Origin: an uncultured bacterium
Lineage (GTDB): Bacteria; CAYMEV01
Length of the DNA: 64,000 bases
Direction of reading: 5' to 3'
Assembly (NCBI GenBank): GCA_964431655.1
Contig: CAYSKJ010000001.1
Location: 13,984 to 77,983 of the forward strand
The position numbers were made by a program, and so were the translations under genes. The notes under the pieces were generated by a model. The model made no database searches. It was not told the DNA's origin and saw only the letters and a list, made by a program, of their open reading frames with translations. Shown piece by piece: positions 32,142 through 64,000 of this stretch. How positions within the stretch are numbered: the first letter of the stretch is position 1; each line of letters opens with the position of its first letter.

Positions 32142-32247
32142 GATGAATAATCTTATTAATGGAAAAAGCGGTTAATTGCAAATGAAAAATTTGCCGAAGT
32201 ATGAGCTGCATATTATGCCTCACAAAGCTGAATATCAAATTTAAATA

Positions 32248-32276
32248 TTGACATAAAAAAGATATACGGTTAACAT
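32248..32276 (+). promoter_or_regulatory. Candidate sigma-70 promoter for ileS (TTGACA-17-TAACAT)
   Basis: TTGACA at 32248-32253, 17-nt spacer, TAACAT at 32271-32276, about 38 nt upstream of the ileS ATG; identical copy at 56809-56837. Confidence 0.4.
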
Positions 32277-32313
32277 ACCCTGTCATTTTATCATTATTAG
32301 CTGGAGGCTCGAT

Positions 32314-35082: not shown

Positions 35083-35083
35083 C

Positions 35084-38603: not shown

Positions 38604-38700
38604 CCCCTTTTCCCGCAGGGAACACCTCTGATAAATATTGACAACAGGTCCAATCAAAATAGGATTAGACTGTAGCTTCAATATAAAAGGGTGTCATCCT

Positions 38701-47022: not shown

Positions 47023-47230
47023 TGAAAATTGGAATATATGTTAATATATAATCAAGTTTGGATTTTTTTCAGTTTTGGTAAGTGGTTTTTACAGGCATAA
47101 TACCTGGTTTAATGGTTATTTTATTATATTTTGGGTGATTTATATTCCGGGAGTAATTTCTTGAAATCTCCCCAGAACCTTTCATCCAATTAATTTAATC
47201 AAAAGAATCCACCTGCCCAGATTAAAAATT

Positions 47231-48580
47231 ATGGAGGTGAAGAAACTGATGATTAACAAATCTACAGCTTTGAAAAAGCTGGCAAAAAAAATAGATCCTG
47301 ATATAGCAAAAAACAGCTGGTATCAGTGGAAATGGCATATCAGGAACAGCATCAGGGATATCAGTACCTTTGAAAACCTGCTGGATATAAGGTTTTCAAA
47401 ACAGGAAAGGGAGTTTTATGAAAATACCTGCAAAAAATTCCCCATGTCCATAACCCCTTATTATTTGTCTTTGATAGACGTGGATGATTTCAGGCATGAC
47501 CCTGTCTTCAGGCAGTCCTTCCCATCAAGGGAGGAGCTTGTTATCAATCGTTATGACATGAAAGACCCTCTTTCCGAGGATAAGGACAGTCCTGTGGAGG
47601 GGGTAACACACCGGTACCCGGACAGGGTGCTTTTCCACATATCCAATATATGCTCGATGTACTGCAGGCACTGCACCAGGAAGAGAAAAGTCGGGGATAT
47701 TGACTATATACCTGACAGAAAGACTATCAAAAAAGGCATAGATTATATCAGCAGAACACCCCGGGTAAGGGATGTACTGCTTTCGGGAGGAGACCCCCTT
47801 ATGCTTTCCGACGAGTACCTGGAATGGATACTTAAGGAACTCAGGGCTATTCCCCATGTGGAGATAATCAGGATAGGTACAAGGATGCCAGTCGTCCTGC
47901 CTTACAGGATTACCGACGAGCTTGTGGACATGCTTAAAAAGTATAATCCTTTGTGGCTTAATACTCATTTCAACCATCCAAGGGAGATAACAGCCTCTTC
48001 AAAGAAGGCTCTGGCCAGGCTTGCTGATGCTGGTATACCTCTCGGGAACCAGTCAGTACTTCTTTCAGGGGTAAATGACTGTCCAAGGATTATGAAAAAT
48101 CTTGTCCACAAGCTTGTAGCCAACCGGGTAAGGCCCTATTATCTTTATCAGTGCGATCTTTCCGAAGGTTTAGAGCACTTCAGAACCCCTGTGGGCAAAG
48201 GTATTGAGATAATTGAGAATCTTATCGGCCATACCACGGGTTTTGCAGTTCCGACCTATGTCATAGATGCCCCCGGAGGCGGGGGGAAGATACCCATAAT
48301 GCCCAATTACCTGATCAGCTGGTCCACTAACAAGGTTGTGCTGAGGAATTTTGAAGGTGTTATTACAACATATAAGGAACCTGATTCCTATGAGCCTATA
48401 TTCTGCGACAGAAAATGTGACGATTGTGTTCTTCCTCTGAAAACCGATGAAGCCGAAGAATCAAAAGCTATTGGCATAAGCCAGCTTTTATCGGATTATG
48501 ATAATACAATATCCCTTGTTCCCCAGGATAATGAAAGAATCAGCAGGCGGGAAGGCCAGGACGGGGAATCAGGGGATTAA
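47231..48580 (+). CDS. kamA: Lysine 2,3-aminomutase (radical SAM, KamA/AblA)
   Basis: [11 protein letters not shown] radical SAM motif in KamA context; KamA N-terminus ([12 protein letters not shown]); PLP region GGDPLML; C-terminal zinc-binding Cys. Confidence 0.9.
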
Positions 48581-48582
48581 TC

Positions 48583-49440
48583 ATGGACAGCATTGAGATC
48601 ATTGGAGCTGGAAGCATTATCCAGCACGGGACTTACAATAACAGAATATACCTTATGAAACTTAACCCCGGGGATTACCCCGGGATTATACCGGTAATGG
48701 AAGAGAAAGCCGCCCGGGAAGGTTATGGCAAGATAACCGCAAAGGTCCCTGCCTCGGTTTATGATGGCTTTGTCAGCTCGGGCTACAAAAAGGAAGCTTT
48801 TATCCCCAGGTATTTTCCTGATGAAACAGACCTGTATTTTGTTTCGAGGTTTCTGGATGTTAAAAGGGCTGTCGATCCCAGGGAAGAGCGCTGTGACGAT
48901 GTTGTAAGCACGGCTATCTCCAGGGAAAAATCCAGCCGGCCCCGGTCCCTTCAAGACCCCTATTCATGCCGTCTGCTTGACGACAGGGATGTACAGCACA
49001 TAACCGAGGTCTATAAACAGGTTTTCAAAACCTATCCCTTTCCCATCTTTGACTGCAAATACATTAAAAAGACCATGAAGGAAAACCTCATCTATTTTGG
49101 AGTATTCCTTGACAAAAAAGAGCTGGTATCGGTTTCATCCACAGAGATGGACATGGAGAATAAAAGCGTTGAAATGACAGACTTCAGCACCCTTCCTGAG
49201 TACCGGGGGAATGGCTTTGCAGCCTGTCTCCTGTCCAGGATGGAGGAGGAGATGGACCGCATGGGGATAAGAACCTTCTATACCATCGCCAGGAGCATGT
49301 CCTACGGAATGAATATAACCTTCGCCAAAAACAGCTATATTTATAGCGGAAGGCTTGTTAACAACACTAATATAAGCGGAAGCATAGAGAGCATGAATAT
49401 CTGGTACAAAATCAGGGAGCATCGGAACAAGTCCAAATAA
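48583..49440 (+). CDS. ablB: GNAT acetyltransferase, probable beta-lysine N6-acetyltransferase (AblB/YodP family)
   Basis: 285 aa two-lobed GNAT immediately downstream of kamA (3-nt gap), the arrangement of ablA-ablB / kamA-yodP loci; GNAT motif RGNGFAACLLSRMEEEM. Confidence 0.65.
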   Translation: MDSIEIIGAGSIIQHGTYNNRIYLMKLNPGDYPGIIPVMEEKAAREGYGKITAKVPASVYDGFVSSGYKKEAFIPRYFPDETDLYFVSRFLDVKRAVDPREERCDDVVSTAISREKSSRPRSLQDPYSCRLLDDRDVQHITEVYKQVFKTYPFPIFDCKYIKKTMKENLIYFGVFLDKKELVSVSSTEMDMENKSVEMTDFSTLPEYRGNGFAACLLSRMEEEMDRMGIRTFYTIARSMSYGMNITFAKNSYIYSGRLVNNTNISGSIESMNIWYKIREHRNKSK

Positions 49441-49445
49441 AAAAA

Positions 49446-49470
49446 GGCCCTCCGCCGGGAGGGCCTTTTA
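49446..49470. terminator. Rho-independent terminator downstream of ablB, bidirectional with the convergent gene
   Basis: GC-rich hairpin ggccctcc-gccg-ggagggcc followed by ttttaatat; preceded by an A-run serving the minus-strand gene. Confidence 0.7.
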
Positions 49471-49487
49471 ATATAAATGCTTTTTAT

Positions 49488-49994
49488 TTACGGCGTAGAG
49501 GGGCTTGCTTCATCATCATCATCATCCAGGATTTCCAGCGCCACATAGACCGTTGCCCCTGTTACCCCAGTAATAAGAGCGATACCGACAGGCGAGAGGA
49601 AAAAGATACCGGCAGGGCTGGTATTGAGCAGTAAATTCAGGTCAATCAGAACCGCTTCTTCACCGATTATCAGTCTGCCCTGAACATAATAGCTGGAAGC
49701 TTCTGTTGTCTCGTCTACAGTATGGCTGCGGGTGAAAGACTTGACGCGGACTCTGATATCGAATTCACCCGGGGGCACGCTGTCAATCATGTAATAACCC
49801 GTATCATCAGTATAACCAGAAGGATATTCATTTCCTTCATTGTCAATCAGGAAGATTGTCCCGTTTTTTACTGCAGTTTCGCCGTCCCTGTAGAATAGGA
49901 AACCTGAAACCTTGGCTGCGGATACAGCAGGAACAAGAACGAAAAGGTTGATAATACAGAATATCAACAAGTATATCAGTAAAAATTTTCTCAT
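49488..49994 (-). CDS. Secreted carboxypeptidase-regulatory-like (CarbopepD_reg/transthyretin-like) domain protein with C-terminal TM helix and acidic tail
   Basis: Signal peptide MRKFLLIYLLIFCIINLFVLVPAVSA; beta-sandwich pattern GTIFLIDNEGNEYPSGYTDDTGYYMIDSVPPGEFDIRVRV; C-terminal TM helix then DDDDDE; GGAGG RBS before ATG 49994. Confidence 0.5.
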   Translation of the reverse strand: MRKFLLIYLLIFCIINLFVLVPAVSAAKVSGFLFYRDGETAVKNGTIFLIDNEGNEYPSGYTDDTGYYMIDSVPPGEFDIRVRVKSFTRSHTVDETTEASSYYVQGRLIIGEEAVLIDLNLLLNTSPAGIFFLSPVGIALITGVTGATVYVALEILDDDDDEASPSTP

Positions 49995-50079
49995 AAAAAT
50001 CCTCCCTGGGAAATTAACGTAGTTAAAATAAATAATATTATGCAATAGCTATTCTGTCAATAGAATAATTCAAATATTT

Positions 50080-52389
50080 TTAATGGCTGTTTCCTTTCAA
50101 AAGGGTATCTACAAAACTTTCGGGTTCAAAGGGCATAAGATCATAGGCCTTTTCACCCACGCCTATGTATTTTATGGGAAGATCAAGCTCTTCCGATATG
50201 GCAGCAATTATGCCTCCCCTGGCGGTTCCGTCAAGCTTGGTAAGTACAATCCCGTTAATATCTACTATCTGCTTGAACTGCTTTGCCTGAGAGATTGCAT
50301 TCTGGCCATTGGTAGCATCCAGCACCAGTATTGTTGAATGGGGAGCTCCGGGGAGCTGTTTGCTGACTGTCCTCTTTATCTTTTCAAGTTCCTGCATAAG
50401 ATTGGTTTTGGTATGAAGCCTGCCAGCCGTGTCTATTATAAGGACATCATGGTTTTTAGCCTTAATGGAATTTACAGCATCAAATGCCACAGCAGACGGG
50501 TCTGCCCCCTCCTTGTGGGAGACCATGGGGACATTAAGCCTTTGAGCCCATATTTCCAGCTGCTGTATGGCTGCTGCACGAAAAGTGTCGCATGCTGCAA
50601 TCATAATGGTTTTGCCTTCCTTCTGGAACTGCAGGGCGAGCTTTGCAATGGTGGTTGTTTTACCTACTCCGTTTACCCCGACAACCATTATTACATAAGG
50701 CTTAGGGGACGAGGCATCAATGGGGCCGGTTCCTGGTCTCGACAGGACATTTACCAGATGCTGTCTGATATAGGAAATGAGAAGGGACGGTTCCTTTTTT
50801 TCTCTGGGGCTGAGGTCCTTTTCAATGTTTGTGATTATTCTGGATGTTACACCTACCCCTATATCGCTCAAGATCAGCAGCTCCTCGAGCTCTTCGGCCA
50901 TATCCTCATCCATCATGCCCCTGGCTCTGTTTAAAAAGGCATTTAAGCGGCCGTAAAACTGGTCCTGGGTCTTGGAAAGACCCTCTCTCAGGCGGTTGAT
51001 AAGTTTTTTTCGGGAGAGGGTGTCCTCCAGAAATTCCTTGACTTTAAGCTCCTGAGAGCTGAGTTCCCCTGATTTTTCCTGCTTTTTGTAATCCCTGGAT
51101 ATGCTTTTCATGAGTTCAACTGATTCAGTATACAGGGAGGTGTCTTTGAATTTATTTTCTATTTCTGAAAGAAAATCAACAGCTTCAGCATAGTTCCCGT
51201 TTCCGGCAAGAAGCTTTGCAAACAGGAGAAGGTGCTTTGGTGCAAAATGGGACCTGTCGGTCCTGGATATATCATCAAAAATTTTTAGTGACTGATTGTT
51301 TCTCTGCTGATGGTAATATAGCTCAGCAAGGATCAGCCTGGCATGTGTCCCCAGTGCATGACCTGATTCAGGATTCCTTGATGCTTCTTTCATGCCTCGT
51401 TCAATTTTTTTAGATACCGGGTCTTCAATTTCCAGAACCTTTCCGTTGTCGGACAGTTCTCTGATAAGCCCGGCGGCCGCTTTTATGCTGTTTTCATCAA
51501 AAAAAGGCTGATCCAGGATAGATGAGAGGTATTGAATGCTCAGCTCCTGATTTTTCATCCGGCTGTATATAAGCCCCAGCTGTAGAAGAAAGGGGTTTTT
51601 ATTCTTATCAGGGACAGCATCCAGGGATTCTTTCAGTATATCCGCGGCTTTCCTGTAATTTTCCTGTTCTGAGAATATTCTGGCAAAAGCAAGGATATCC
51701 TCCGGCACGATATCTTTACGGGAGTATTTTTTATGCAGACTGTTTTTAAGTTCTTTTAAGATGGCATGAACCTTAAGAGATAATTCGGCATTCTCGGTAT
51801 ATTTCAAAAGAGAGCAGACAGTCTCCAAAGCACTGATATTGTCACCGGTATTTACAAAGTACTTTCCCTTTAAAAATCTGTATGCAGGGTCACTTCGGTC
51901 AAGTTCACTTATTTGACCCATTTCCACCATATCCATTAGCATGGAAAAGGCTTCCGGGTTGTCATGCCTGATGAAAAAATCAAGGCCTTTCATTGCAATA
52001 TCTTTGGTTCTGAAGGATTTAATATTTTTTATCGCTGAAACGGCATAATCGGCCAGGATTCTTGAATCACCGCCGGAAAGAAAGGACGGTTCTATAAGAT
52101 CAAAGCCGGAAAAAAGCTCGCCTGCAATTTCCGCATTATCCTTTACCTGATCCAGGCGGGGAAGGATAAAGGCCAGAGAATCGGCAATCCTTCCAGTCCT
52201 TGCAAGAGATGTATACTTAGGCTGTATAAGCAGATCCTGCTCGAAACCCGGTGTCTTTTCCAGTTCCCTGATAACCTTAAGGCACAGCTTAGGGTCTTTT
52301 AAAGCAAGGGTTCTTAGTTCATCCCCGGGGTGTACTGAATTAAGTATTTCCCTGGTTAGTGCATGAGATTTTGATTTAATAAAGAGCAT
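50080..52389 (-). CDS. ftsY: Signal recognition particle receptor FtsY with long (~460 aa) TPR-like N-terminal extension
   Basis: C-terminal NG domain: [33 protein letters not shown]; NG domain C-terminal as in FtsY; N-terminal region helical-repeat rich. Confidence 0.85.
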
Positions 52390-52405
52390 TTTGTACTTAA
52401 ACCTG

Positions 52406-53194
52406 CTATTCTACCAGGGTTTCAATACCTTCAAGATTTATCAGCCTCTGCCTTATGGCTCTTGCAAGGTCTTCAGGGCAATCAGGGCTGTTCAGGGCTT
52501 TTTTATAATTCTCAACGGCAGCAGGCCTGTTGTTTTTCAGTTCATAGACCTGGGCGATATTATATATAAACTGAGGGATGTCCGGCTGAATTGCAAGAGC
52601 CCTCTGAAAAATGTCAAGGCTGTCATTGTACCTTTTGGTATCCTTGTAAAGAAGCCCAAGCTGAAGGTAGCTGTATAGAAAGTCGGGAGCTATTTCCACA
52701 GATTTCTGGAGTTCCGATATGGCCAGGTCCTTTTTGTTCTCCTTTATGAAAATCAGGGCAAGATTATAGTGAGCAAGCTCAGGAGTCGGGTAGGCTTTAT
52801 TTTTTAATACTTCAACAAAATGGCTTTTAGCCTTATCATACTGGCCTGTCTCGGCATAGAGGACACCCAGGTTGTTGTGGGTATCAAAGAATCCAGGCTC
52901 AAGCTTCAGGGCATCCCTGAAATAATCTTCAGCGCTCTTAAAATCCTTGAGGCCTTTATAGGCAAGCCCTATGGCGTTTACGAGGACAGGGTCGTTTTTA
53001 ATCCCCTGGTATGCCTGTTTCAGCTCCTTCAGGGCCTGTCCAAAATCACCGTTGTCAAGAAACCTCATGCCTATCCTCATATGTGCCTGGGCAGTCTGCA
53101 TGTCGGAAACCTTTTTTTCAGTCCTCCGGGCAGAGGAACATCCTGTCAGAATTATAAAAATTGCCACCAGGGCAATAAGGCTAATTTTCTTCAT
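52406..53194 (-). CDS. TPR-repeat lipoprotein (PilF/PilW-like)
   Basis: Lipobox IILTGCSS after signal peptide; about six TPR repeats; 262 aa. Confidence 0.7.
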   Translation of the reverse strand: MKKISLIALVAIFIILTGCSSARRTEKKVSDMQTAQAHMRIGMRFLDNGDFGQALKELKQAYQGIKNDPVLVNAIGLAYKGLKDFKSAEDYFRDALKLEPGFFDTHNNLGVLYAETGQYDKAKSHFVEVLKNKAYPTPELAHYNLALIFIKENKKDLAISELQKSVEIAPDFLYSYLQLGLLYKDTKRYNDSLDIFQRALAIQPDIPQFIYNIAQVYELKNNRPAAVENYKKALNSPDCPEDLARAIRQRLINLEGIETLVE

Positions 53195-54863
53195 GGAAAT
53201 TTCTCCTTATAGATTCATAATATGCGTTTTCAAAAGCTATAACAATCTTAGGGTCATATTTTGTACCCGACCATTCAATGACTTTTGCCAGGACATCATC
53301 AGGATCCCACCTGTTCTGGTAGGGACGGTCTGTGGTCATGGCGTCAAAGGTGTCGGCAATGGCAATTATACGGGCCTCAAGGGGTATAAGTTCTCCTCTG
53401 ATTTTATCGGGATAACCCGAGCCGTCCCATTTTTCGTGATGGTGCTTCATTCCGGGAATTATATCATGCAGTTTTGTTATGCTGCCCATGATATTTGCCC
53501 CGTAAATCGGGTGTTTCTGCATTTCCCTGTATTCTTCGTCATCAAGTATGCCGGGTTTCTGGAGTATGCTGTCAACTATGCCTATCTTGCCTACATCATG
53601 AAGAAGTGCAGCTATCTTTACCTTTTTGATTATATTGGGGGGCAGGCCCAGTGAAAAGGCTATGGCAACACTGTACCTTGTAACCCTTTCGGAATGGCCC
53701 TTTGTATAGGGGTCTTTGGCATCAATGGAAGATGCCAGGGCCTGTATGCTCTGAAAGAAAAGCTCCTCATTATCCTTTGCTGCTTTCTCCAGCTGAACGA
53801 TATACTCCTTGATCTTCCTGGTCATAAGGTTGAAGGTATTGGCAAGACTGCCAATCTCATTCTTTGATTTTATATTAATCATCTGCGAATACTCGCCGTC
53901 AGCTATGGACCTTGATTTCTGTTCAAAGAGCATTATAGGGTTGGAGAGCCTTTTGGCCAGGATATAGCTTACCATGGCAACAGCAACCATTGTAGTCAGA
54001 AGGATGGTAAGGGATACATAAATTATCTCCGAAATCTGTATCCTGCTTTCCTCTTCGAGCCTTCTGACATAGAAGAGGGCTGTTTTTATCGGTGACTGGG
54101 ATATAATCCCCCAGTTCAGATTGAACATGCTGACATTTGCAAAGGCTCCGAATATATTCTCCCTGTTCTGGTCATGGTATGTGATGGAGCCGGATCCCAT
54201 TCCCAGGAGAGCAGTCTCCACAACCTCCTGGTTACCCATGTACTGCCTGTCTATCATAATATCCCTGTTGCTGTGATAGACAGCAAATCCATTCTGATCA
54301 ACCACAAAGACTGTGCTTTGCCTGTAGTCCTGGCTGAATATCTCCTCAAAAGGCGTATATAGATTGGAACACATCTTCAGAATGACCTCATTCTTATCTT
54401 TCATGTCTGCAAGAGTGTAAAAGCAGAAATAGGAGAATATTTCATTATTGGATTCATACAGATCCAGATGTTCAATGTATATTCCATACCTGCTGATGTT
54501 TGCCGTGAGTTCAGGGTCTGAACCGGATTCAATCACGGAGAATACGCTCTGGGCACCGCTGTTGATATTTTCCAGGGCTTCATCAAGCTCTGAATAGTTA
54601 AGGGCTTTTATGATACTGCCGGCACTGCTGAGTGTATTGATATATCCGGAAAAAAGGATATTAATCTCCTTGGCCAGGGATTTTACCCTGGATACTTCAG
54701 TCTCCTGCAGGTTGGCTATTAGAGTATCCTGGTATTTGTAAATCATGTCCTTGGTAATCTTCTGAGTACTTTTCAAATTAAAAAAGGTAGCAGCAATTAA
54801 GGGAATAATGGATATCAGCAGGGTTGAGACAAGTATCTCGGTCAGTATGGTTCTAATCTTCAT
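53181..54863 (-). CDS. HD-GYP domain c-di-GMP phosphodiesterase with N-terminal periplasmic sensor, TM and HAMP-like region
   Basis: HD motif LHDVGKIGI and GYP motif HHEKWDGSGYP; two TM segments flanking a ~250-aa extracytoplasmic domain. Confidence 0.85.
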   Translation of the reverse strand: MKIRTILTEILVSTLLISIIPLIAATFFNLKSTQKITKDMIYKYQDTLIANLQETEVSRVKSLAKEINILFSGYINTLSSAGSIIKALNYSELDEALENINSGAQSVFSVIESGSDPELTANISRYGIYIEHLDLYESNNEIFSYFCFYTLADMKDKNEVILKMCSNLYTPFEEIFSQDYRQSTVFVVDQNGFAVYHSNRDIMIDRQYMGNQEVVETALLGMGSGSITYHDQNRENIFGAFANVSMFNLNWGIISQSPIKTALFYVRRLEEESRIQISEIIYVSLTILLTTMVAVAMVSYILAKRLSNPIMLFEQKSRSIADGEYSQMINIKSKNEIGSLANTFNLMTRKIKEYIVQLEKAAKDNEELFFQSIQALASSIDAKDPYTKGHSERVTRYSVAIAFSLGLPPNIIKKVKIAALLHDVGKIGIVDSILQKPGILDDEEYREMQKHPIYGANIMGSITKLHDIIPGMKHHHEKWDGSGYPDKIRGELIPLEARIIAIADTFDAMTTDRPYQNRWDPDDVLAKVIEWSGTKYDPKIVIAFENAYYESIRRNFHEEN

Positions 54864-55980
54864 TGCCTGGCCTGCTGTCAGGACCGGTATTCATGGGAGG
54901 CAGTTCTGTTAAGGTTTCACCGGTCAGTTCATAAGCCAGGACCTTCTGGGTTTTTCCTTTAAGGAGAAGTTCTCCCAGGGGTCTGGCACAGAAATAACTT
55001 TTTGTGTTTATATAGGTCTCCTCACCTATGGTAACATACTGGGGCCTTGATACCGATTCCAGTCTTTTTGCCACGTTTACCGCGTCTCCCAGCGCAGTAT
55101 ATTCCATTCGTATATCTGAGCCCAGGTTACCTGCCACCACCTTGCCGGTGTTTATGCCTACCCTTATCGAAAACCGCTGGTCATGAGGAAGATCACTATT
55201 CAATCTTTCCACCTCCCGGATCATTTCTATGCCGCACTTCACTGCTTTTAACGGATTGAACTGGTCGTAATGGGGCGCACCGAATAAGGCCATAATGCCG
55301 TCGCCCATGAACTTATCCACAATGCCGCCATTATCAAAGATGACCTTGGTCATGGAATTAAGGTATTTATTGAGGAATACAGCAACCTGAGGCGGAGGAA
55401 GCATTTCGGAAAGCCTGCTGAAATCCTTTACATCGCAAAAAAGGACTGAAAGGGTCGTTTTCTGCAGGTCTAAGGTATTTCTTTCCTTACCTATATTGCT
55501 TACAATTACCTCTACGATATCAGGGCTGAAGTACCTCTGAAGATTATTCCTGATATTTCTTTCTGCTATTATATTGTCCATAAGCCTGACTTTATGAACA
55601 GCCAGGGCAATATTGTTGGCTATGGTAATAAGAAGGGACATATCATCCTTGCTGAATATATTTTCACTTATAAGGCTGTCGAGGTAGATGACTCCTATCA
55701 CCTGGTCTTCCAGCCATAAGGGAACGCAGAGAACACTCCGGATGCCGTACATATGTATGGAATCGCCGGCTTTGAACCTTGGATCGAGCACGGCATTACT
55801 GGTGATAATACCCACCCTTTCATTGAATACCTTGTTCAGGATGGTTGTGCTGATCTTTATATTGTTGTCAAACCTGTTATCTTTGCTCTTTGTGGCCTTT
55901 ATTTTCAGTTTTTTTGCGTTTTCGTCGTAAAGAAGGATAAAACCTCTGTCGGATGAGAATACATCAAAAAGCAGAGCCAT
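54853..55980 (-). CDS. GAF domain-containing class III adenylate/guanylate cyclase
   Basis: CHD motifs LFCDVKDFSRL, FMGDGIMALFGAP, RVGINTGKVVAGNLG; N-terminal GAF; start set at MALLFDVF (55980); upstream part of the 432-aa ORF to 56151 is the duplicated MATE sequence read in another frame. Confidence 0.8.
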   Translation of the reverse strand: MALLFDVFSSDRGFILLYDENAKKLKIKATKSKDNRFDNNIKISTTILNKVFNERVGIITSNAVLDPRFKAGDSIHMYGIRSVLCVPLWLEDQVIGVIYLDSLISENIFSKDDMSLLITIANNIALAVHKVRLMDNIIAERNIRNNLQRYFSPDIVEVIVSNIGKERNTLDLQKTTLSVLFCDVKDFSRLSEMLPPPQVAVFLNKYLNSMTKVIFDNGGIVDKFMGDGIMALFGAPHYDQFNPLKAVKCGIEMIREVERLNSDLPHDQRFSIRVGINTGKVVAGNLGSDIRMEYTALGDAVNVAKRLESVSRPQYVTIGEETYINTKSYFCARPLGELLLKGKTQKVLAYELTGETLTELPPMNTGPDSRPGNED

Positions 55981-56002
55981 GATATTTTCAAGCAGTGATT
56001 CA

Positions 56003-56702
56003 AGCTTAAAGGCCGCCTTAAACCTGAGGCACGGTACCTGCTCAGAAAATTCAGATTCAATACCCGGTATGCCATCACGCATCCCGATATACGTGAAATT
56101 ACTGTTGCCAGAGCAGCGCCCCGGATGCCCATTTCGGGGAAGAAAAACCACCCGAAGATCAGTATCGGGTCAAGGATTATATTTATTATCAGGCTTGTTA
56201 TAAGTATCTTAAAAAATACAATATTATTGCCTATTGCATTGAATGTATTGCCGAGGACCTGATAGAAGAACAGAAAAAAGGAGCTTATTATCATGATGCT
56301 TGTATAGGTAACCCCCTGCGAGCTGACAAGGGAGTCGGAGGTCATGAATCTGAATAACAGGGGTATTACCCAAAGCCCCGTTAATATGAAAAGTACGCTA
56401 AGTACAGCGCACAGTACCGCCGAGGTCCTGAATACATCAACAGAGCTTTCAAAGTTTTTCTCGCCTATTCTCCTGGCAATGATCGAGGTCTGGCCGGTGG
56501 CAATAATGCTCCCTATGCTCATTATACCCCATAGAATAAAGGATGAAACTGATATGGCAGCTATGCTGTGATGCCCTAACTTCCCTATCCAGAATATATC
56601 AATGAGCTCGAAGGCTGATTGAAACACCATCATCCCTATTGCCGGAAAGGCAAGGCGCAAAATGTTCCTGTTCAATGAGCCTGTTGTCAGATCCCTGTAC
56701 AT
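56003..56702 (-). pseudogene. 5-prime-truncated duplicate of the MATE efflux gene (N-terminal 233 codons only, cut at the duplication junction)
   Basis: Identical to codons 1-233 of the MATE gene at 30792..32141; reading frame runs into unrelated sequence after 56003 and terminates at 55905 (chimeric 265-aa ORF). Confidence 0.85.
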
Positions 56703-56874
56703 GATGAATAATCTTATTAATGGAAAAAGCGGTTAATTGCAAATGAAAAATTTGCCGAAGTATGAGCTGCATATTATGCCTCACAAAGCTGAATATCAAA
56801 TTTAAATATTGACATAAAAAAGATATACGGTTAACATACCCTGTCATTTTATCATTATTAGCTGGAGGCTCGAT

Positions 56875-59643
56875 ATGGACAGTCAAAAAATAAAGGAGAC
56901 CCTTAATCTTCCAAGGACAGGATTTCCCATGAAGGCGAATCTGTCTGCCAACGAACCGAAAATACTGGAATTCTGGGAGAAAGAGGGTATTTATCATGCG
57001 ATAAGGGAAAATAAATCAGGCCTGCCAAAATTCATACTTCATGACGGCCCGCCTTATGCTACAGGCCATATACATATCGGCACAGCCCTCAACAAGGTTT
57101 TAAAGGATTTTATTGTTAAATATAAAAATATTACAGGTTTTGACGCACCCTATGTTCCTGGCTGGGATTGCCACGGGCTGCCCATTGAGAATAAGGTTGA
57201 AAAAACCATGAAAGATAAAAAGGAATCCCTTTCAAAACTTGAGATTCGGAAAAGATGCTATGATTATGCCGTATCCTATGTTGATATAATGCGTGAGGAA
57301 TTCAAGAGGCTGGGAGTTCTGGGCCGGTGGGAAGAACCCTATCTGACCCTGAACCCTGTTTATGAGGCGGTTATCCTCAGGGTTCTCGCATCAGCAGTCA
57401 GGCAGGGGTATGTCTACCGCCAGCTCAAACCCATACACTGGTGCATGGGGTGTACAACCGCCCTGGCAGAGGCGGAGCTTGAATATTCGGATGCAGAATC
57501 GGATTCCATATTCGTGAGGTTTGCTCTCAAGAGGGCAGGTATTGCAAGTCCCCTTAAGGAATATGAAGGCAGAGAAAATGTCTTCTTTATGATCTGGACC
57601 ACCACTCCCTGGACCATACCTGCAAATATGGCCCTGGCAGTCCATCCGGACCTGGATTACGGCATTTACAGCGTTGACGGTGAGTTGCTTATACTTGCCA
57701 GTGAGCTGAAGGATAGCCTTGAATCAAAACTGGGTATCGGCTCTTTTAAGCTGTTGAAACAGTTCAGGGGCAATATGCTGGAAGGGGATATCGCCCGGCA
57801 TCCCCTTATAGACAGGGAGTCTGCAGTAGTTCTGGCAAACTATGTAACCCTTGAACAGGGTTCAGGTATTGTGCATACAGCACCGGGGCACGGCCAGGAA
57901 GATTATCAGACCGGACAGAAATACAATATAGAAACCTTCTGCCCGGTGGATGAAAAGGGGAGATTCACCAGCGGATTCGCACCCTTTGAGGGGGTCAATG
58001 TCTTTGAATCAAACCCCGGTATAGTACAGATGCTCAAAGACAGGGGCATGTTATTGAAAAGCGAGAGCTTTTCCCATTCCTATCCCCATTGCTGGAGATG
58101 CAAAAAACCTGTTATATTCAGGGCGACAGAGCAGTGGTTTATAAATATTGACCACAACGGCCTGAGAAAAAAAGCCCTGGACAGTATCCGGAGCGTTGAC
58201 TGGATACCAGGCTGGGGTATGAACAGGATATATGCCATGATAGAGAACAGACCCGACTGGTGCATTTCAAGGCAGAGAAACTGGGGAGTTCCCATCGTTG
58301 CAGTAAAGTGCAGTGACTGCGGAGAGATAAGCATCGATGCTGACCTTATAGACAGGGTAGCGGATATTGTTGAAAAAGAAGGTATAGGTATCTATTTTGA
58401 AAAGAATATAAGGGAAATAATCCCCGGTTTGAAATGCCCGCGGTGCGAATCGCATAATATAATACAGGAAGAGGACATACTGGATGTATGGTTTGAATCC
58501 GGGGTATCCCATAAGGCTGTTCTGACAACCAATGAGGAGCTGTCCTGGCCTTCGGACCTGTATCTTGAAGGTAGCGACCAGCACAGGGGATGGTTCAATT
58601 CTTCCCTAATACTTTCACTGATATCGGAAAAGACCCCCCCTTACAGGCAGGTACTGACCCATGGTTTTGTCGTTGATGAGCAGGGGAAAAAGATGTCCAA
58701 GTCTCTGGGTAATTTTATCAGCCATGAGGATATAATCGGAAAGTACGGCGGAGACATACTTAGGATGTGGGTTGCATCCGAGGATTACAGGGAGGATATA
58801 AGGGTATCCAGAAACATCATTGACAATCTTTCGGAAAGCTACAGGAAGATAAGAAACACCTTCCGCTTTGCACTTTCAAATCTCTATGATTTCAACCCTG
58901 ATAAGGACATGGTAAGGCTTGAGAATATGACCGGCCTGGATAAATTCTATTTTGAAAAGTATCTAGCTATTGCAGAAAGGATAAAATCTGCCTACGAGAA
59001 GTACAATTTCCATATTGTTGTCCAGAACCTTGTCAACTTTGCCAGCATTGACCTGTCAAGCCAGTACCATGACATTATCAAGGACAGGCTCTATGTAAAC
59101 AGGGCTGACAGCAGGGAGAGGAGGAGCACCCAGAGCTGCATATACAGGATAATAAAGGGGCTTCTGACCCTTTCTTCCCCGATTCTGTCCTTTACAGCCG
59201 ACGAAGCATGGCAGTATCTTCCTAAATCATCCAAAGATCCTGTCAGCGTTCATCTCTCCACTCTCGGGGAATATGGTTTTCATTTTGAAAAAACAGGTAT
59301 TTTTGAGGACATTTTGAGCATAAGGTCTGCAGTATCCAAAAAGCTGGAAATCCTGAGGAAAGAGAATGTAATCGGCTTGTCCCTGGATTCTCATGTGAGC
59401 ATCAAAATACCTGCAAGGCTCTTTGAACAGCTCAATTGCATGAAAGATGAGCTGAAAGAGATATTGATGATATCGGAAATAGAGCTTGTTAAATCAGAGG
59501 AAAAAGAAAAGGATACTGTTGAGGAATCAATAGAAATATCTGCAAAAAAGCATGACGGGGAGAAATGCCCCCGATGCTGGCGGTATTTTTACAAAAGCCA
59601 GGAACTGTGTCCGAGATGTTCCTCCATAATAAAAGATATTTAG
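56875..59643 (+). CDS. ileS: Isoleucyl-tRNA synthetase, second identical copy
   Basis: 922-aa translation identical to 32314..35082. Confidence 0.9.
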   Translation: MDSQKIKETLNLPRTGFPMKANLSANEPKILEFWEKEGIYHAIRENKSGLPKFILHDGPPYATGHIHIGTALNKVLKDFIVKYKNITGFDAPYVPGWDCHGLPIENKVEKTMKDKKESLSKLEIRKRCYDYAVSYVDIMREEFKRLGVLGRWEEPYLTLNPVYEAVILRVLASAVRQGYVYRQLKPIHWCMGCTTALAEAELEYSDAESDSIFVRFALKRAGIASPLKEYEGRENVFFMIWTTTPWTIPANMALAVHPDLDYGIYSVDGELLILASELKDSLESKLGIGSFKLLKQFRGNMLEGDIARHPLIDRESAVVLANYVTLEQGSGIVHTAPGHGQEDYQTGQKYNIETFCPVDEKGRFTSGFAPFEGVNVFESNPGIVQMLKDRGMLLKSESFSHSYPHCWRCKKPVIFRATEQWFINIDHNGLRKKALDSIRSVDWIPGWGMNRIYAMIENRPDWCISRQRNWGVPIVAVKCSDCGEISIDADLIDRVADIVEKEGIGIYFEKNIREIIPGLKCPRCESHNIIQEEDILDVWFESGVSHKAVLTTNEELSWPSDLYLEGSDQHRGWFNSSLILSLISEKTPPYRQVLTHGFVVDEQGKKMSKSLGNFISHEDIIGKYGGDILRMWVASEDYREDIRVSRNIIDNLSESYRKIRNTFRFALSNLYDFNPDKDMVRLENMTGLDKFYFEKYLAIAERIKSAYEKYNFHIVVQNLVNFASIDLSSQYHDIIKDRLYVNRADSRERRSTQSCIYRIIKGLLTLSSPILSFTADEAWQYLPKSSKDPVSVHLSTLGEYGFHFEKTGIFEDILSIRSAVSKKLEILRKENVIGLSLDSHVSIKIPARLFEQLNCMKDELKEILMISEIELVKSEEKEKDTVEESIEISAKKHDGEKCPRCWRYFYKSQELCPRCSSIIKDI

Positions 59644-59644
59644 C

Positions 59645-60175
59645 ATGATGTTTAAGAAAAACCCTGCAGGGGCATTTGTGTTATTCCTGCTGTCAGTTGC
59701 TGTTATTGACCAGCTGAGCAAGTTTTATATTCTCAGGCTAAATGCTCTGGACCCTGGGGCTCTGCTTTCGGGTATCCCTATAATAATCGGTTTCCTCGAG
59801 ATAACCCTGACCTATAATCAGGGCATCATTTTTGGTTTTCTTGGGAATGCCAATAATCTGGTGATACTAACACTTAATATATTCATACTTGCAGGGGTAT
59901 TTATCTTTGTTGCCATGGATATAAAAAGGGGCAGGACGGGGCTTTTATATCTCGGGGGCTTCGGTCTGATTCTGGGAGGAGCCCTGGGGAATATCCTTGA
60001 CAGGATAATTGTAGGAAAGGTCATAGATTTCATTAAGGTATATATAACATCTGATTTTATATGGCCAATATTCAATATTGCCGATTCAGCAATAACCGTC
60101 GGAATAATCCTGGTATTTGCTGATATGATTTTTTTTGACAGGGAGAGTAAGATAAATGCACCCGATACTGCTTGA
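59645..60175 (+). CDS. lspA: Lipoprotein signal peptidase, second identical copy
   Basis: Identical to 35084..35614. Confidence 0.9.
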   Translation: MMFKKNPAGAFVLFLLSVAVIDQLSKFYILRLNALDPGALLSGIPIIIGFLEITLTYNQGIIFGFLGNANNLVILTLNIFILAGVFIFVAMDIKRGRTGLLYLGGFGLILGGALGNILDRIIVGKVIDFIKVYITSDFIWPIFNIADSAITVGIILVFADMIFFDRESKINAPDTA

Positions 60176-60932
60176 TCTTGGATTTATAAGGCTCCATACC
60201 TATGGTTTCTGTATTTCACTGGGTGTAGTGGCTGCTTTATTGCTGGCCATAAAGCTGGGCAGGTCCTTTGATATAAGCAGGGATTTCATACTGGATCTTA
60301 CGATAAAACTGCTTATATCGGGGATCATTGGCTCGAAAATCCTCTATATCATGGTATATTACCAGGAATTTATCCAGGAACCTGTCAGGATAATCAGGGA
60401 TTTCAGGTCTGGATTTGTTTTTTTCGGGGGACTTATCCTTGCATTTATAATGGGCTATCTGCATGTCAGAAAGAGTAAATACAGGATGGGCAATCTTTTT
60501 GATGTTTTCGCCCCTGCATTGGCCCTTGCCCATTCCTTTGGAAGGCTCGGGTGCACCATGGCTGGATGCTGTTATGGAAAGGCGGTGCCCCATGATGCCT
60601 TTTATACCCTGCGTTTCTGCCATCCTGAAACCATTGCCTGTCCTGTATGCAGGCCTCTTATTGCGACACAGCCCATAAGTTCGATATTTCTCTTTCTGCT
60701 GTCGATGCTTATGCTATCTCTTTTTTTTAAATGGAAAAAGCGTTATCCTGGAAGCCTATTATTTATCTATGCATCAACTTATTCCCTTTTCAGGTTTATT
60801 ATTGAGTTTTTCCGCGGTGATGACCGCGGGTTCCTTTTCGGGCTTTCAACATCCCAGGTCATCAGCATGGCTGTATTTCCGGCAGCCATTTACCTTCTTT
60901 TCAAATATAATATACGCAGAAAGAAACCATGA
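60156..60932 (+). CDS. lgt: Prolipoprotein diacylglyceryl transferase, second identical copy
   Basis: Identical to 35595..36371. Confidence 0.9.
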   Translation: MHPILLDLGFIRLHTYGFCISLGVVAALLLAIKLGRSFDISRDFILDLTIKLLISGIIGSKILYIMVYYQEFIQEPVRIIRDFRSGFVFFGGLILAFIMGYLHVRKSKYRMGNLFDVFAPALALAHSFGRLGCTMAGCCYGKAVPHDAFYTLRFCHPETIACPVCRPLIATQPISSIFLFLLSMLMLSLFFKWKKRYPGSLLFIYASTYSLFRFIIEFFRGDDRGFLFGLSTSQVISMAVFPAAIYLLFKYNIRRKKP

Positions 60933-61918
60933 GTGCGGATATCCCGACAAAAGGGTCTGTTATGTGCCGAAAACCCGGCAGTGAATTATCAGGTCTCAGG
61001 CTTGATATTGCTCTTTCAGAAATGGATCCGGGTATTTCAAGGAATTTTGCACAATATCTTATAATATCCGGATATGTTTTTGTCAATGGCAGGCAGGAAA
61101 TTCGCAAATCCCAGAGACTGAATGCTGAAGATATCGTAGAGGTCTTGGAATATGAAAAAAAATCTGATGCCGTTCCCCTGCCAAAAAAAGCAGAGCTGAA
61201 TATACTGTATCAGGATGAATTCCTTCTGGTCATTGACAAGCCTTCAGGTCTAACAGTCCATCCAGGATCCGGCAATACCCAGGACACCCTTGTTAATGCC
61301 CTGCTCTATTACCGGGAAATGTTCAGCATACGCCTTTCAGATATGCAGGGCATATCCCGGTGCGGTATAGTGCACAGGCTTGACAAGGATACATCCGGTG
61401 CCATGCTTATTGCCAAGGAAAATGAGGCGCACCTTAAGCTTCAAGGACTGTTCAAGGAGCGCAGGGTCAAGAAGGAATACCTTGCGGTGGTATGGGGCGA
61501 GATAATGCCGAACGAACTTATAATTGACAGCCCTATTGGAAGGCACCCCAAAAACAGGCTTAAATTTTCATCAAAATCATCCTTTCCGAAGGATGCATTT
61601 ACAAAAGTGAGGGTATTCAGCCGTTTCAACGGATTCAGCCTCATTAAGGCCTATCCCCTTACCGGCCGGACCCACCAGATCCGTGTTCACATGAAAGAGG
61701 CCGGGTTTCCCATTGTCGGAGATAAAGTATATTCTGCCAAAAGGACACAGAGTATGGAGAAATATTTTGCCAGAAACAGTACGGTTTTAAGACTGATGCT
61801 TCACAGTCAAAGGATTTTATTTCCCCATCCCTTTAAAAGTGATATATTAATTATCAGTTCACCGGTTCCAGCTGATTACAGGGAGTGTTTAAGGGTTTTA
61901 AGGCATTATAATGGTTAG
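60929..61918 (+). CDS. RluA-family pseudouridine synthase, second identical copy
   Basis: Identical to 36368..37357. Confidence 0.85.
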   Translation: MSADIPTKGSVMCRKPGSELSGLRLDIALSEMDPGISRNFAQYLIISGYVFVNGRQEIRKSQRLNAEDIVEVLEYEKKSDAVPLPKKAELNILYQDEFLLVIDKPSGLTVHPGSGNTQDTLVNALLYYREMFSIRLSDMQGISRCGIVHRLDKDTSGAMLIAKENEAHLKLQGLFKERRVKKEYLAVVWGEIMPNELIIDSPIGRHPKNRLKFSSKSSFPKDAFTKVRVFSRFNGFSLIKAYPLTGRTHQIRVHMKEAGFPIVGDKVYSAKRTQSMEKYFARNSTVLRLMLHSQRILFPHPFKSDILIISSPVPADYRECLRVLRHYNG

Positions 61919-63164
61919 AGTCCTAATAGTCGATGATTCAGAAATTATCCGGAAACAGCTCAGGGCATTTCTGGAGACGAAGAAGCGCTATGAGGTTCAG
62001 GAGGCTTCAGACGGCCTGGAAGCAATACAAAAGCTGAAGGCTGACCCTGATTTTGACATCATTGCCCTTGATGTCGAGATGCCGCGTCTTAACGGGCTGG
62101 AAACCCTCAGGGGAATATCTTCCATGGATCTGGATGCTGTGTGTATCATGATAACATCAAGGAGTGACTTTAATACCGTAATACAGGCCGTACGTCAAGG
62201 AGCCTATGATTATGTTACAAAACCCATTGATTTTGAAAACCTCCTTCTTGTAATTGATCGCGCCCTGGAGAAAAGGGCTCTGGAAAAGGAGAACAAGAGG
62301 CTGATTGATGATCTGCAGAAGATGAACAGCAATCTTACCCAGCTGGTAAGGCAGAGAACAAAACATCTTGCAGAAGCGGAACAGAAGGCCAGAACCTATG
62401 CCAACCAGCTTGAAAAGGCCTATGAAGAGCTTAAAAGCCTTGATAAAATGAAGGGCGATTTTATTTCCCTTGCCTCCCACGAGCTCCGGACGCCTCTTGT
62501 TCTTATCAAGGGCTACAGCGAGATACTTCTAAGGAAAAGATACGGGCATATGTCGGAGCAGGTAGAGAATGCCCTGAAGATACAGAGCGAGAATATAGAA
62601 AAACTCAGTGAGATAATAAATGAAATATTAATGATAAATAACCTTGAGATTCTCGAGAATATCTACAAAGAAGAAAATATTGACATTAATCCGGTCCTTG
62701 TGGAGGCCTATGAGTCATTAAAGGAATTTATAAATCTCCGCAATCAGGTCTTCAAGTCCGAGATCAGTGAAATCCCCCTTATTGTAAAAGGCAATAATAA
62801 ACTGCTTTTTTATGCTGTCCATAACCTTCTTATCAATGCCATCAAATTTACCCCCGATGGCGGTGTAATAGTATTAAGAAGCGCAATGAAGAATTCAGAA
62901 AGCCCTTCCAAAGCCCTGATATCTGTCTCTGATACAGGCATAGGCATCCCCCAGGAATCTCTGGAAAAAATATTTACCCCTTTTTACGAAGTAAAGGATA
63001 TTAAGTACCACAGCTCAGGAAAATTTCAGTTCCTTTCCGGAGGGCTCGGAGTAGGACTGTCTATAGCAAAAAACATTGTAAACCAGCATTCAGGCAGGAT
63101 TGCTGTAGAAAGCTCCCTGGGAAAGGGAAGTACCTTCTATATCACCCTTCCCCTCGTGAAATAA
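61911..63164 (+). CDS. Hybrid response regulator / histidine kinase, second identical copy
   Basis: Identical to 37350..38603. Confidence 0.85.
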   Translation: MVRVLIVDDSEIIRKQLRAFLETKKRYEVQEASDGLEAIQKLKADPDFDIIALDVEMPRLNGLETLRGISSMDLDAVCIMITSRSDFNTVIQAVRQGAYDYVTKPIDFENLLLVIDRALEKRALEKENKRLIDDLQKMNSNLTQLVRQRTKHLAEAEQKARTYANQLEKAYEELKSLDKMKGDFISLASHELRTPLVLIKGYSEILLRKRYGHMSEQVENALKIQSENIEKLSEIINEILMINNLEILENIYKEENIDINPVLVEAYESLKEFINLRNQVFKSEISEIPLIVKGNNKLLFYAVHNLLINAIKFTPDGGVIVLRSAMKNSESPSKALISVSDTGIGIPQESLEKIFTPFYEVKDIKYHSSGKFQFLSGGLGVGLSIAKNIVNQHSGRIAVESSLGKGSTFYITLPLVK

Positions 63165-63261
63165 CCCCTTTTCCCGCAGGGAACACCTCTGATAAATATT
63201 GACAACAGGTCCAATCAAAATAGGATTAGACTGTAGCTTCAATATAAAAGGGTGTCATCCT

Positions 63262-64000
63262 ATGTACGCAGGCATCGATGCAGGTTCGCTGTCATTCAAA
63301 ATTGTCCTGGCTGAAGATGAGGGGCTCCTGAGAAAAACGGTTTATCATGAAGGAGAGCCCCTAAAAGCATTCAATAGTATTCTTGAGCAATTCAGGCTGG
63401 ATAACGCAGTCATTACCGGCAGATATGGCGCGCTTATTTCCGGCAGGTACAGAATACCTTCCGCTGACCCTGTCAGAGCCCTGCTTTACAACCAGCAGTC
63501 CAGTGTAAGCCGGATTGTGGATATCGGTGCATCCAGACTCTCCATGATAGAGCTTAAGGGGAAAAAGTTCCACAGGTTAAATACCAATTCCCTTTGTGCA
63601 TCAGGAACAGGTGCCTTCCTTGACCAGCAGATGAAACGGATGGGACTGGATTACAGCATGCTGGAAGGCATTGACTTCATTGAAGACCCCCCTTCCATTG
63701 CAACCCGTTGTGCAGTCTTTGCAAAAAGCGACCTTATACACAGACAGCAGGAGGGTTACCCGGTAAAGATGCTGTGGAACGGCCTGGTGCGTGGAATGGC
63801 TGAATCAGCATTTTCCACCCTTTTCAGGGGGAAAAATATCAGCGGGGACATTCTTCTGATAGGCGGTCTGGCAAACAACCGCATATTTGCAGAATACCTT
63901 AAAAGGCTCTGCGATCCAGCTTGTCTTGTAGTTCCCCAGTATTCATCCTATTACCAGGCTGAGTCAAACCTCCTTTACTGTCAGAATAATAAGGAGCATA
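63262..64000 (+). CDS. CoA-substrate-specific enzyme activase, second copy, truncated by the window end
   Basis: Identical to 38701..39439; the ORF continues off the window. Confidence 0.8.
   Translation, partial: MYAGIDAGSLSFKIVLAEDEGLLRKTVYHEGEPLKAFNSILEQFRLDNAVITGRYGALISGRYRIPSADPVRALLYNQQSSVSRIVDIGASRLSMIELKGKKFHRLNTNSLCASGTGAFLDQQMKRMGLDYSMLEGIDFIEDPPSIATRCAVFAKSDLIHRQQEGYPVKMLWNGLVRGMAESAFSTLFRGKNISGDILLIGGLANNRIFAEYLKRLCDPACLVVPQYSSYYQAESNLLYCQNNKEH

Follow-up and report, generated by a model that had tools for sequence, protein, structure and literature searches.

In the 64,000-nt stretch of DNA from an uncultured bacterium that we analyzed (the window), a chromosomal segment of 24,561 bp was very probably copied in tandem (head to tail), perhaps with further amplification, by an illegitimate event mediated by microhomology. 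Comparison of the window with itself showed that positions 56003-64000 match positions 31442-39439 with 0 mismatches over 7,998 nt and a period of 24,561, and that identity drops at once to ca. 25% left of both repeat starts (31442 and 56003). The first copy of the duplicated unit, U, occupies 31442..56002 (24,561 bp, no strand assigned; delimited by the exact repeat and annotated from Pfam marks on identical contigs and the list of open reading frames). Copy 2 (56003..64000, likewise unstranded, 100% identical to 31442-39439) begins as a direct repeat right after the unit end at 56002, with zero insert between the copies, and is clipped by the window end so that its first 7,998 nt are visible. 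This perfect identity is uninformative if the source contig is a collapsed graph loop that was walked twice. The initial annotation had proposed a duplication junction at a microhomology, which the exact repeat together with the native flanks confirms. We refer to these flanks of U as A and B, to the junction as J, and to the native boundaries as A/U and U/B.

From its start, U comprises, in order, the 5' 700 nt of a gene for a MATE efflux protein, ileS, lspA, lgt, and genes for a pseudouridine synthase and a response regulator-histidine kinase. It continues with genes for a BcrAD/BadFG-type protein of 1,356-1,377 aa, lnt, a P-type ATPase, a KamA-like radical SAM protein, and ftsY, which is followed at the far end by genes for a TPR lipoprotein and an HD-GYP protein and by the 3' part of a cyclase gene. 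Within U, ca. 18 genes are doubled, among them ileS, whose second copy (56875..59643, plus strand) is identical to the first at 32314-35082. All of this is housekeeping content: We found neither mobile-element genes in U nor any for replication, partition, an integrase, or transfer, and GC content is uniform at 41-45% across the window. The nearest tyrosine recombinase (XerC/D-like) is encoded outside U in flank B. Besides the duplication itself, the 64-kb window holds no direct or inverted repeat of at least 60 nt, and Rfam and tRNA scans of the window gave no matches and no rRNA or tRNA genes.

Positions 56002 and 56003 flank the join. Copy 1 reads AGAATAAT followed by AGCTTAAAGGCCGCC, and the junction reads CAGTGATTCA followed by the same AGCTTAAAGGCCGCC. 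An overlap of 5 bp (AGCTT) had been reported initially, but these are merely the first five bases of the repeat, so that the length of the overlap is not readable from the window alone and requires the native right flank. The native cyclase gene, present on four contigs (L006, L020, L021, and L022), follows the window as far as 56012 and departs from it thereafter, and the match to the MATE gene starts at 31442. On the gene strand, all four native alleles read AATAAGA, CCTTTAAGCT, and then TGAATCACTG, and the MATE gene reads GGCGG, CCTTTAAGCT, and then ATTATT. The real overlap is therefore 10 bp, AGCTTAAAGG in the orientation of the window, and was kept once at the junction (56003..56012, no strand; CCTTTAAGCT on the gene strand). 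Its parental counterpart in the intact MATE gene lies at 31442..31451 (no strand) and covers codons 231-234. At random pairs of breakpoints in the window, an overlap of at least 10 bp has an empirical probability of 2.6e-5. Both breakpoints are intragenic, the right one in a gene for an FHA-GAF-class III cyclase and the left one in the MATE gene. We also considered an origin by cloning or ligation via a HindIII site, as the junction creates AAGCTT, and rejected it because the parental site in the MATE gene reads TAGCTT, which is no HindIII site, and because the 10-bp identity explains the join.

The intact MATE gene (30792..32141, minus strand) encodes 449 aa with two MatE repeats (residues 20-180 and 251-408; Pfam MatE, 7e-54) and was found with its context in five other contigs. 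Complete MATE transporters consist of two such repeats, forming N and C lobes with 12 helices in total, and the left breakpoint falls between the two. At the junction, the chimeric open reading frame MATE' (55905..56702, minus strand) keeps the 5' region of the gene and 233 codons, whose product is identical to the first 233 residues of the intact protein, and then reads into foreign sequence, as the initial annotation had described: 32 codons in the +1 frame of the cyclase coding sequence lead to the stop at 55905 and bring the predicted product to 265 aa. With its first MatE repeat only, MATE' is not a complete MATE, though it may yield a six-helix half transporter. The divergent MATE-ileS intergenic region (56703..56874, no strand) was duplicated with U and shows promoter-like hexamers on both strands, and no terminator-like site was seen between MATE' and the cyclase remnant; both observations come from consensus scans only and are weak evidence.

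The native cyclase has 575 aa with FHA (36-97), GAF (193-328), and Guanylate_cyc (375-552) domains and shares this architecture with hundreds of FHA-GAF-class III adenylate/guanylate cyclases in Acidobacteriota, Gemmatimonadota, Desulfobacterota, and other phyla; homologs at 37-82% identity align through the breakpoint. The initial annotation had placed the junction upstream of the cyclase start codon, whereas it falls inside the 575-aa coding sequence at codons 190-193. The minus-strand ATG at 55978-55980, which lies 22 nt from the junction and opens the sequence MALLFDVF, is the internal Met201 of the native protein and the first in-frame ATG 3' of the junction. What the window carries is thus a 5'-truncated remnant (54853..56012, minus strand) that corresponds to native codons 190-575, i.e., GAF and class III cyclase domains with neither FHA domain nor native start, and that differs in this from the full-length cyclases. 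The FHA domain (36-97) is present solely in the native alleles P0001, P0121, and P0122. Gene callers report a 409-aa product from 56082, of which the first 24 residues are out-of-frame MATE sequence. This MATE sequence had been described as antisense to the cyclase, but both fragments lie on the minus strand in different frames. The remnant has no obvious ribosome-binding site, and its first ATG sits inside the MATE' frame. The MATE' and cyclase fragments are probably largely nonfunctional. It had further been claimed that this copy lost its native upstream region. Replacement of the native sequence is indeed evident, but the loss goes beyond the promoter and includes the FHA domain and the coupling to an upstream Ser/Thr kinase gene. 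Downstream of the remnant and in the same direction follow the minus-strand genes for the HAMP-HD-GYP protein (53181-54863) and the TPR lipoprotein (52406-53194) as well as ftsY (50080-52389). These genes (50080..54863) here stand behind the MATE 5' region and not behind the kinase-cyclase operon; L020 and L021 retain the native order.

The exact 100-nt junction sequence is present in 12 contigs from as many samples (ERZ27252280, 282, 285, 287, 297, 303, and 306; JGI 3300033428, 3300033166, and 3300033162; Logan SRR10872667 and SRR10872669). It also begins Logan contig SRR10872666_3684, so that the junction is found in 13 other contigs from 13 samples, assembled by three pipelines (MEGAHIT k141, JGI, and Logan). 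The single-copy, colinear arrangement A-U-B was found in DRR835045_23659, ERZ27252298:k141_128107, SRR29564167_185845, and ERZ27252292:k141_64219. These four contigs represent closely related strains (99.2-99.99% identical) in which both genes are intact, and the 100-nt junction is absent from all of them. Within one ENA study and one haplotype, some samples gave long unbroken A-U-B contigs (ERZ27252298, 71.5 kb; ERZ27252292) and others gave junction-spanning contigs. Variants of ileS are common to contigs linked to A and to J, and the J-linked contigs carry several ileS SNP haplotypes. We looked for copy-specific SNPs by which to date the event, but the ileS variants, being polymorphisms among strains or mosaics of the assembly, do not allow dating.

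Mechanistically, the duplication would go back to the pairing of an end in the FHA-GAF-cyclase gene, either nascent or broken, with the 10-bp identity CCTTTAAGCT in the MATE gene of the sister chromosome, at a distance of 24.6 kb; template switching or short-homology joining would then have produced A-U-J-U-B. At the outer edges, the MATE gene stays intact at A/U inside the window, and the 575-aa cyclase would be intact at U/B beyond the window end. The junction itself carries MATE(1-233), to which cyclase(190-575) is joined out of frame. Like this molecular route, a tandem location on the chromosome of the cells, as opposed to a circle, is our inference.

Two readings would deny that the junction is a derived piece of real DNA. 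We regard it as highly improbable that an assembler joined two sites on a short shared k-mer, as the initial annotation had also considered, and that such DNA does not exist: Although the two copies show no mismatch and the second is cut off by the window end, the shared sequence of 10 bp is far below any k used (k=141 and k=31), and the identical junction in 13 other contigs, including k=141 MEGAHIT contigs that extend for kilobases to both sides, excludes a join of this kind. We give next to no credence to the inverse polarity, in which the junction would be the original state and the derived forms would be the intact genes for MATE and the FHA-cyclase; formal symmetry alone can be invoked for it. 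The full-length MATE protein has both MatE repeats, the full-length FHA-GAF-cyclase is conserved across phyla and aligned through the breakpoint, and the two genes are joined out of frame at the junction, where the reading frame meets a stop 32 foreign codons on. In addition, the sequence upstream of the cyclase in four related contigs differs from 56003..56151, which bears out the initial proposal that the MATE gene of copy 1 is native and the junction derived.

The other readings accept the junction and concern the molecule that carries it. It is rather unlikely, in our estimation, that U is a 24,561-bp extrachromosomal circle closed at the same microhomology beside an unduplicated chromosome, with the window contig being an assembler's walk A-U-J-U through a mixed graph. 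A circle equally predicts the head-to-tail junction, and it would account for junction-spanning contigs that are unbroken at forks and for the length of Logan contig SRR10872666_3684, which at 24,591 nt equals U + 30 (k-1, with k=31). Among the junction-bearing samples, moreover, we found none with a contig that also crosses A/U or U/B for kilobases. However, the housekeeping content of U (ileS, lspA, lgt, lnt, and ftsY), its lack of replication, partition, integrase, and transfer genes, and the absence of a composition shift would leave stable maintenance of a circle unexplained. The same Logan contig starts 20 nt before the junction, at a distance of exactly 30 nt from the divergence of J and B, which suggests that the U/B branch is also present in that sample. 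In the public source contig, moreover, A is connected with J and apparently with B. Chances are about even that the junction is real but overstated by the source contig, in that the duplication or amplification exists in part of the population or at another copy number and A-U-J-U with identical copies is a graph traversal and not one molecule. The distribution of A-U-B and junction-spanning contigs by sample within the same study and haplotype and the several ileS SNP haplotypes on junction-linked contigs favor this reading, which refines rather than contradicts a tandem duplication on the chromosome.

Judging from assembler behavior, the junction would outnumber the native boundaries in some samples and be infrequent in others, and the copy number of the tandem duplication probably varies. 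A simple two-copy duplication should make unitig-type assemblers stop at its forks, but L012 and L013 cross the junction and extend 8-9 kb to either side of it, a pattern more in keeping with a circle or with three or more copies than with exactly two. Classical drug targets are among the genes in U, namely ileS and lspA. Tentatively, and with rather low confidence, U may be a copy-number-variable amplification, or an amplicon circle, of a block of housekeeping genes with ileS, lspA, lgt, and lnt among them that is kept in natural populations of at least two sequencing projects, with the junction dominating the native boundaries in some samples and nearly absent in others, and with extra dosage selected in situ, e.g., by natural inhibitors of IleRS or LspA. 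The link to inhibitors of IleRS or LspA is our own speculation. If the variable copy number holds, this would be a natural unstable amplification of a block with ileS, lspA, lgt, and lnt.

RecA-dependent duplications arise between long repeats such as IS elements, rrn operons, or REP sequences; they also yield tandem duplications that span tens of kilobases, but U has no repeats at its ends, and the parental sites share 10 bp. The kind of event seen here, microhomology-mediated tandem duplication or amplification, is known and ordinary, and to our knowledge it is well described in the laboratory and rarely documented at base resolution in environmental populations. For the uncultured bacterium studied here, a segmental duplication is resolved to the base, with both parental alleles and the derived junction coming from independent metagenomes. 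In E. coli, junctions of lac amplifications form at microhomologies of 4-15 bp that lie 7-32 kb apart (Slack et al. 2006, PMC1428787). Like the short-junction duplications of E. coli and Salmonella, the one in the window is head to tail, has a novel junction at a short identity (10 bp over a distance of 24.6 kb) of which one copy was kept, and involves no IS element or long repeat; both its size and its overlap lie inside the range published for E. coli. Unlike the lac amplifications, which come from laboratory selection, it was found in environmental assemblies of an uncultured bacterium, and, in contrast to those of the E. coli examples, its microhomology is not G-rich. Unstable amplifications selected by antibiotics, such as sdrM amplicons of 7-13 kb, likewise have microhomology or no homology at their junctions (reviewed in PMC11721125). 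They share with our case a tandem array with a microhomology junction, though heterogeneity is deduced here from assembler behavior alone. The instability and copy-number heterogeneity expected of such arrays, which expand and contract, would explain why the junction is dominant in some samples and missing from contigs in others.

The public 409-aa "GAF cyclase" (P0004) is debris of the junction, as is the 265-aa MATE fragment, and neither is a gene with a native start; the true cyclase is the 575-aa FHA-GAF-cyclase in an operon with a Ser/Thr kinase gene. The 409-aa product and an intact 575-aa cyclase (P0121) are each on record from an NCBI contig of 111,272 nt, and a contig of equal length is on record for the exact IleRS of the window (P0123). 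Searches for exact entries of the 375-aa open reading frame, the 265-aa MATE' frame, P0121, and the window IleRS returned no record, and exact DNA scans of genome and metagenome contig sets with a 45-nt pattern common to the junction and the native allele gave no match. A profile scan of genome contigs with the FHA-GAF-cyclase yielded distant relatives only (at most 39% identity) and no close unduplicated genome, and a literature search on the sample accessions found no paper. In a search with the window's IleRS, the nearest named relatives were ca. 50% identical and came from metagenome-assembled genomes of Desulfobacterota, Nitrospinota, and Nitrospirota.

The last 7,998 nt of the window (56003-64000) are a perfect copy of 31442-39439 with 0 mismatches, and identity drops to ~25% directly left of both copy starts (31442 and 56003), which defines a repeat unit, U, of 24,561 bp (31442-56002) whose second copy starts directly where the first one ends. 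This duplication is the sole repeat of at least 60 nt within the 64-kb window. U carries ca. 18 genes, including ileS, lspA, lgt, lnt and ftsY as well as genes for a pseudouridine synthase, a response regulator-kinase, a BcrAD/BadFG-type protein, a P-type ATPase, a KamA-like radical SAM protein, a TPR lipoprotein, an HD-GYP protein and two small ORFs. GC content is uniform across U and the whole window (41-45%), and the genes of U include none for replication, transfer or an integrase; U is not a mobile element. The 64-kb window contains no tRNA genes and no Rfam families above the gathering threshold, and the species-representative genome set yielded no close relative of the host, an uncultured bacterium.

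All relevant genes near the duplication junction, J (56002/56003), lie on the minus strand. These are the intact MATE efflux gene (30792..32141, 449 aa), a 265-aa junction ORF that we call MATE' (start 56702, end 55905) and that has exactly 233 residues in common with intact MATE, an ORF with a MALLFDVF start (from 55980; GAF and class III cyclase domains) and, next after it, the genes for HAMP-HD-GYP, TPR lipoprotein and ftsY. Read on the gene strand, MATE is ...GGCGG CCTTTAAGCT ATTATT..., the native right-hand (cyclase) gene is ...AATAAGA CCTTTAAGCT TGAATCACTG... and the junction is ...GGCGG CCTTTAAGCT TGAATCACTG.... Alignment of the native and junction sequences thus gives a microhomology of 10 bp (plus strand AGCTTAAAGG, at 56003-56012 and 31442-31451) and not the 5-bp overlap of the initial annotation, and identities of at least 10 bp have a probability of 2.6e-5 for random breakpoint pairs in this window. 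The left breakpoint, at MATE codon 233/234, separates the two MatE repeats (20-180 and 251-408) and leaves MATE' with the N lobe only; the right breakpoint, in cyclase codons 190-193, is at the GAF domain's N-terminal edge. The fusion is out of frame by +1 (CCT TTA AGC in MATE vs ACC TTT AAG CTT in the cyclase), and MATE' therefore reads 32 foreign codons across the Met201 ATG of the cyclase to the stop at 55905. This matches the truncated second MATE copy described initially (233 native residues, ORF end at 55905), and every statement made there on the raw sequence is correct, but the MATE sequence that precedes the cyclase remnant, interpreted as antisense, is in fact sense since both genes are on the minus strand. 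A HindIII site (AAGCTT, 56002-56007) is formed at the junction; it does not explain the join, as the parental site in MATE is TAGCTT, and we judge it coincidental.

The native cyclase ORF extends further upstream and encodes 575 aa with FHA (36-97), GAF (193-328) and Guanylate_cyc (375-552) domains. Its internal Met201 is the MALLFDVF start, and the breakpoint is consequently located inside native coding sequence rather than upstream of the cyclase start codon as first proposed. Homologues with 37-82% identity all share the FHA-GAF-cyclase architecture, which is widespread in a profile search of genome contigs, and align through the breakpoint without interruption. Gene callers and public annotation (NCBI, JGI, ENA, Logan) report a 409-aa GAF-cyclase, P0004, at 54853-56082 (minus strand), but its residues 1-24 are MATE DNA translated in the wrong frame and this gene call is an annotation artefact of the junction. 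The start of the native cyclase gene overlaps the 3' end of a 793-aa Ser/Thr kinase gene, upstream of which lie an uncharacterised 345-aa ORF and a gene for a free-standing FHA protein. In native order, the genes for FHA protein, 345-aa ORF, kinase, FHA-GAF-class III cyclase and HAMP-HD-GYP (motif HDVGK...GSGYP) follow each other with overlapping starts (L020 3309-11067 and L021 3320-11078, covering flank B and the end of U). A cAMP/cGMP-type cyclase and an HD-GYP phosphodiesterase under phospho-Thr (FHA) control form an unusual signalling cassette.

Contigs of other public assemblies were retrieved via exact-protein look-ups and searched for the exact 100 nt centred on 56002/56003. Twelve contigs, each from a different sample, contain this sequence; they come from seven MEGAHIT k141 assemblies in a single ENA study (ERZ27252280, 282, 285, 287, 297, 303 and 306), three JGI metagenomes (3300033428, 3300033166 and 3300033162) and two Logan assemblies (SRR10872667 and SRR10872669). 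A thirteenth contig, Logan SRR10872666_3684, starts 20 nt before the junction and reads through it. We therefore reject an assembly artefact, which the initial annotation had considered as a join on a short k-mer, because an identity of 10 bp, all that the parental sequences share, is too short for an assembler to join on at k=31 or k=141.

A single U between native left (A) and right (B) flanks is found in four contigs, DRR835045_23659 (69.5 kb; loci L001, L021), ERZ27252298:k141_128107 (71.5 kb; L002, L022, L112, L115), SRR29564167_185845 (40.5 kb; L003, L020) and ERZ27252292:k141_64219 (25.4 kb; L116, L006). The pieces fetched from them are 99.2-99.99% identical to the window, gapless and colinear with 20792-56012, and their offsets exactly fit a single U. 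All four have a full 449-aa MATE spanning position 31442 and on the right match the window only up to 56012, with other sequence beyond. Judged from these sequences, MATE copy 1 is native and the junction derived, as initially proposed; the refuting condition named in the initial annotation does not apply, as the native sequence upstream in the cyclase gene differs from that at the junction.

The junction product P0004, the intact cyclase P0121 (identical to the window's cyclase over the shared part) and P0123 (the window's exact IleRS) are each encoded on a 111,272-nt NCBI contig. Most simply, this is the source contig and its layout is A-U-J-U-B, in which nothing is lost, with intact MATE at A|U and intact cyclase at U|B, while the ca. 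18 genes of U are doubled and two gene fragments lie at J. In a simple two-copy duplication, A|U, J and U|B would all be equally deep, and for this reason contigs from de Bruijn assemblers without repeat resolution should end at the forks. MEGAHIT contigs nevertheless cross J unbroken (9.4 kb and 8.6 kb in ERZ27252285, 4.6 kb and 9.1 kb in ERZ27252297), and the sole A-side contig found in ERZ27252297 is 1.65 kb long and ends 326 nt before the boundary. Conversely, A-U-B contigs are unbroken in ERZ27252298 and ERZ27252292 of the same ENA study and nearly the same haplotype. From this assembler behaviour, J seems to be more abundant than the native boundaries in part of the samples and rare in others, a pattern to be expected if an amplification expands and contracts or if subpopulations are mixed. 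A 24,561-bp circle of U would give the same junction, but it seems improbable given that U consists of housekeeping genes and that a fork to B appears to be present: SRR10872666_3684 is 24,591 nt long (U + 30, i.e., k-1 for k=31) and begins exactly 30 nt before J and B diverge, and this length and its gapless colinearity are those expected for a loop closed by J with an exit to B.

The 100% identity of the two U copies in the window gives no date for the event, since identical copies would result by construction from a graph walk, and ileS SNPs are common to A-linked and J-linked contigs and not copy-specific. Within IleRS, strain SNPs are concentrated in the C-terminal third (34300-35082; compared to L001-L003, L012 and L013), with amino-acid changes at 679, 756, 798, 806, 842, 866 and 896. 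These variants are combined in a mosaic fashion on A-linked as well as junction-linked contigs, suggesting recombination among strains or assembly mosaics.

A 24.6-kb head-to-tail repeat that keeps one 10-bp identity at J and lacks long end repeats points to a tandem duplication, and the initial reading of a duplication junction at a microhomology thus holds. By analogy, we infer a microhomology-mediated event of the illegitimate, template-switch type. Amplification junctions in E. coli have 4-15-bp microhomologies 7-32 kb apart (PMC1428787), ranges that include the 10 bp and 24.6-kb spacing observed here; the model proposed for them is a template switch over a long distance between sister forks, after which the array grows by homologous expansion (PMC1428787). 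Copy number in arrays of this kind is heterogeneous, and the arrays are unstable (PMC11721125). In our case, a nascent strand may have switched template at the 10-bp identity between MATE and the cyclase gene to create the head-to-tail U.

As a consequence, the second HD-GYP, TPR and ftsY set would now lie behind the duplicated MATE-ileS intergenic region, for which a consensus scan gives weak evidence of promoter-like hexamers and, equally weakly, no terminator-like site ahead of the 5'-truncated cyclase remnant. With its native start lost, no obvious Shine-Dalgarno sequence and a first ATG that lies within the MATE' frame, this remnant is probably poorly translated; any product would be a GAF-cyclase no longer under FHA and kinase control. 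MATE' is predicted to form half a transporter, with six helices and a foreign tail of 32 residues.

The class of event is well known, and we describe a new, unusually well-documented environmental instance. Its significance would be greater if read depth revealed that the ileS-lspA-lgt-lnt block is amplified to variable copy number under selection. U carries all three lipoprotein-maturation genes (lspA, lgt and lnt-like) next to ileS (32314-36371 and 42768-44291; copy 2 from 56875). Since natural antibiotics exist against IleRS and LspA, dosage selection of U via such inhibitors is conceivable. FtsY (50080-52389, minus strand; 769 aa) is unusually long for a bacterial FtsY; an N-terminal extension of ~450 aa, with faint TPR-type matches in Pfam, precedes its SRP54_N and SRP54 domains. 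Directly adjoining the MATE exporter, flank A holds a radical-SAM cluster (27027-30740) with a B12-binding radical SAM protein (463 aa), a SPASM-domain radical SAM protein (333 aa) and an FAD/amine-oxidase-type protein (444 aa); this may be a small cluster for a modified peptide or a cofactor.
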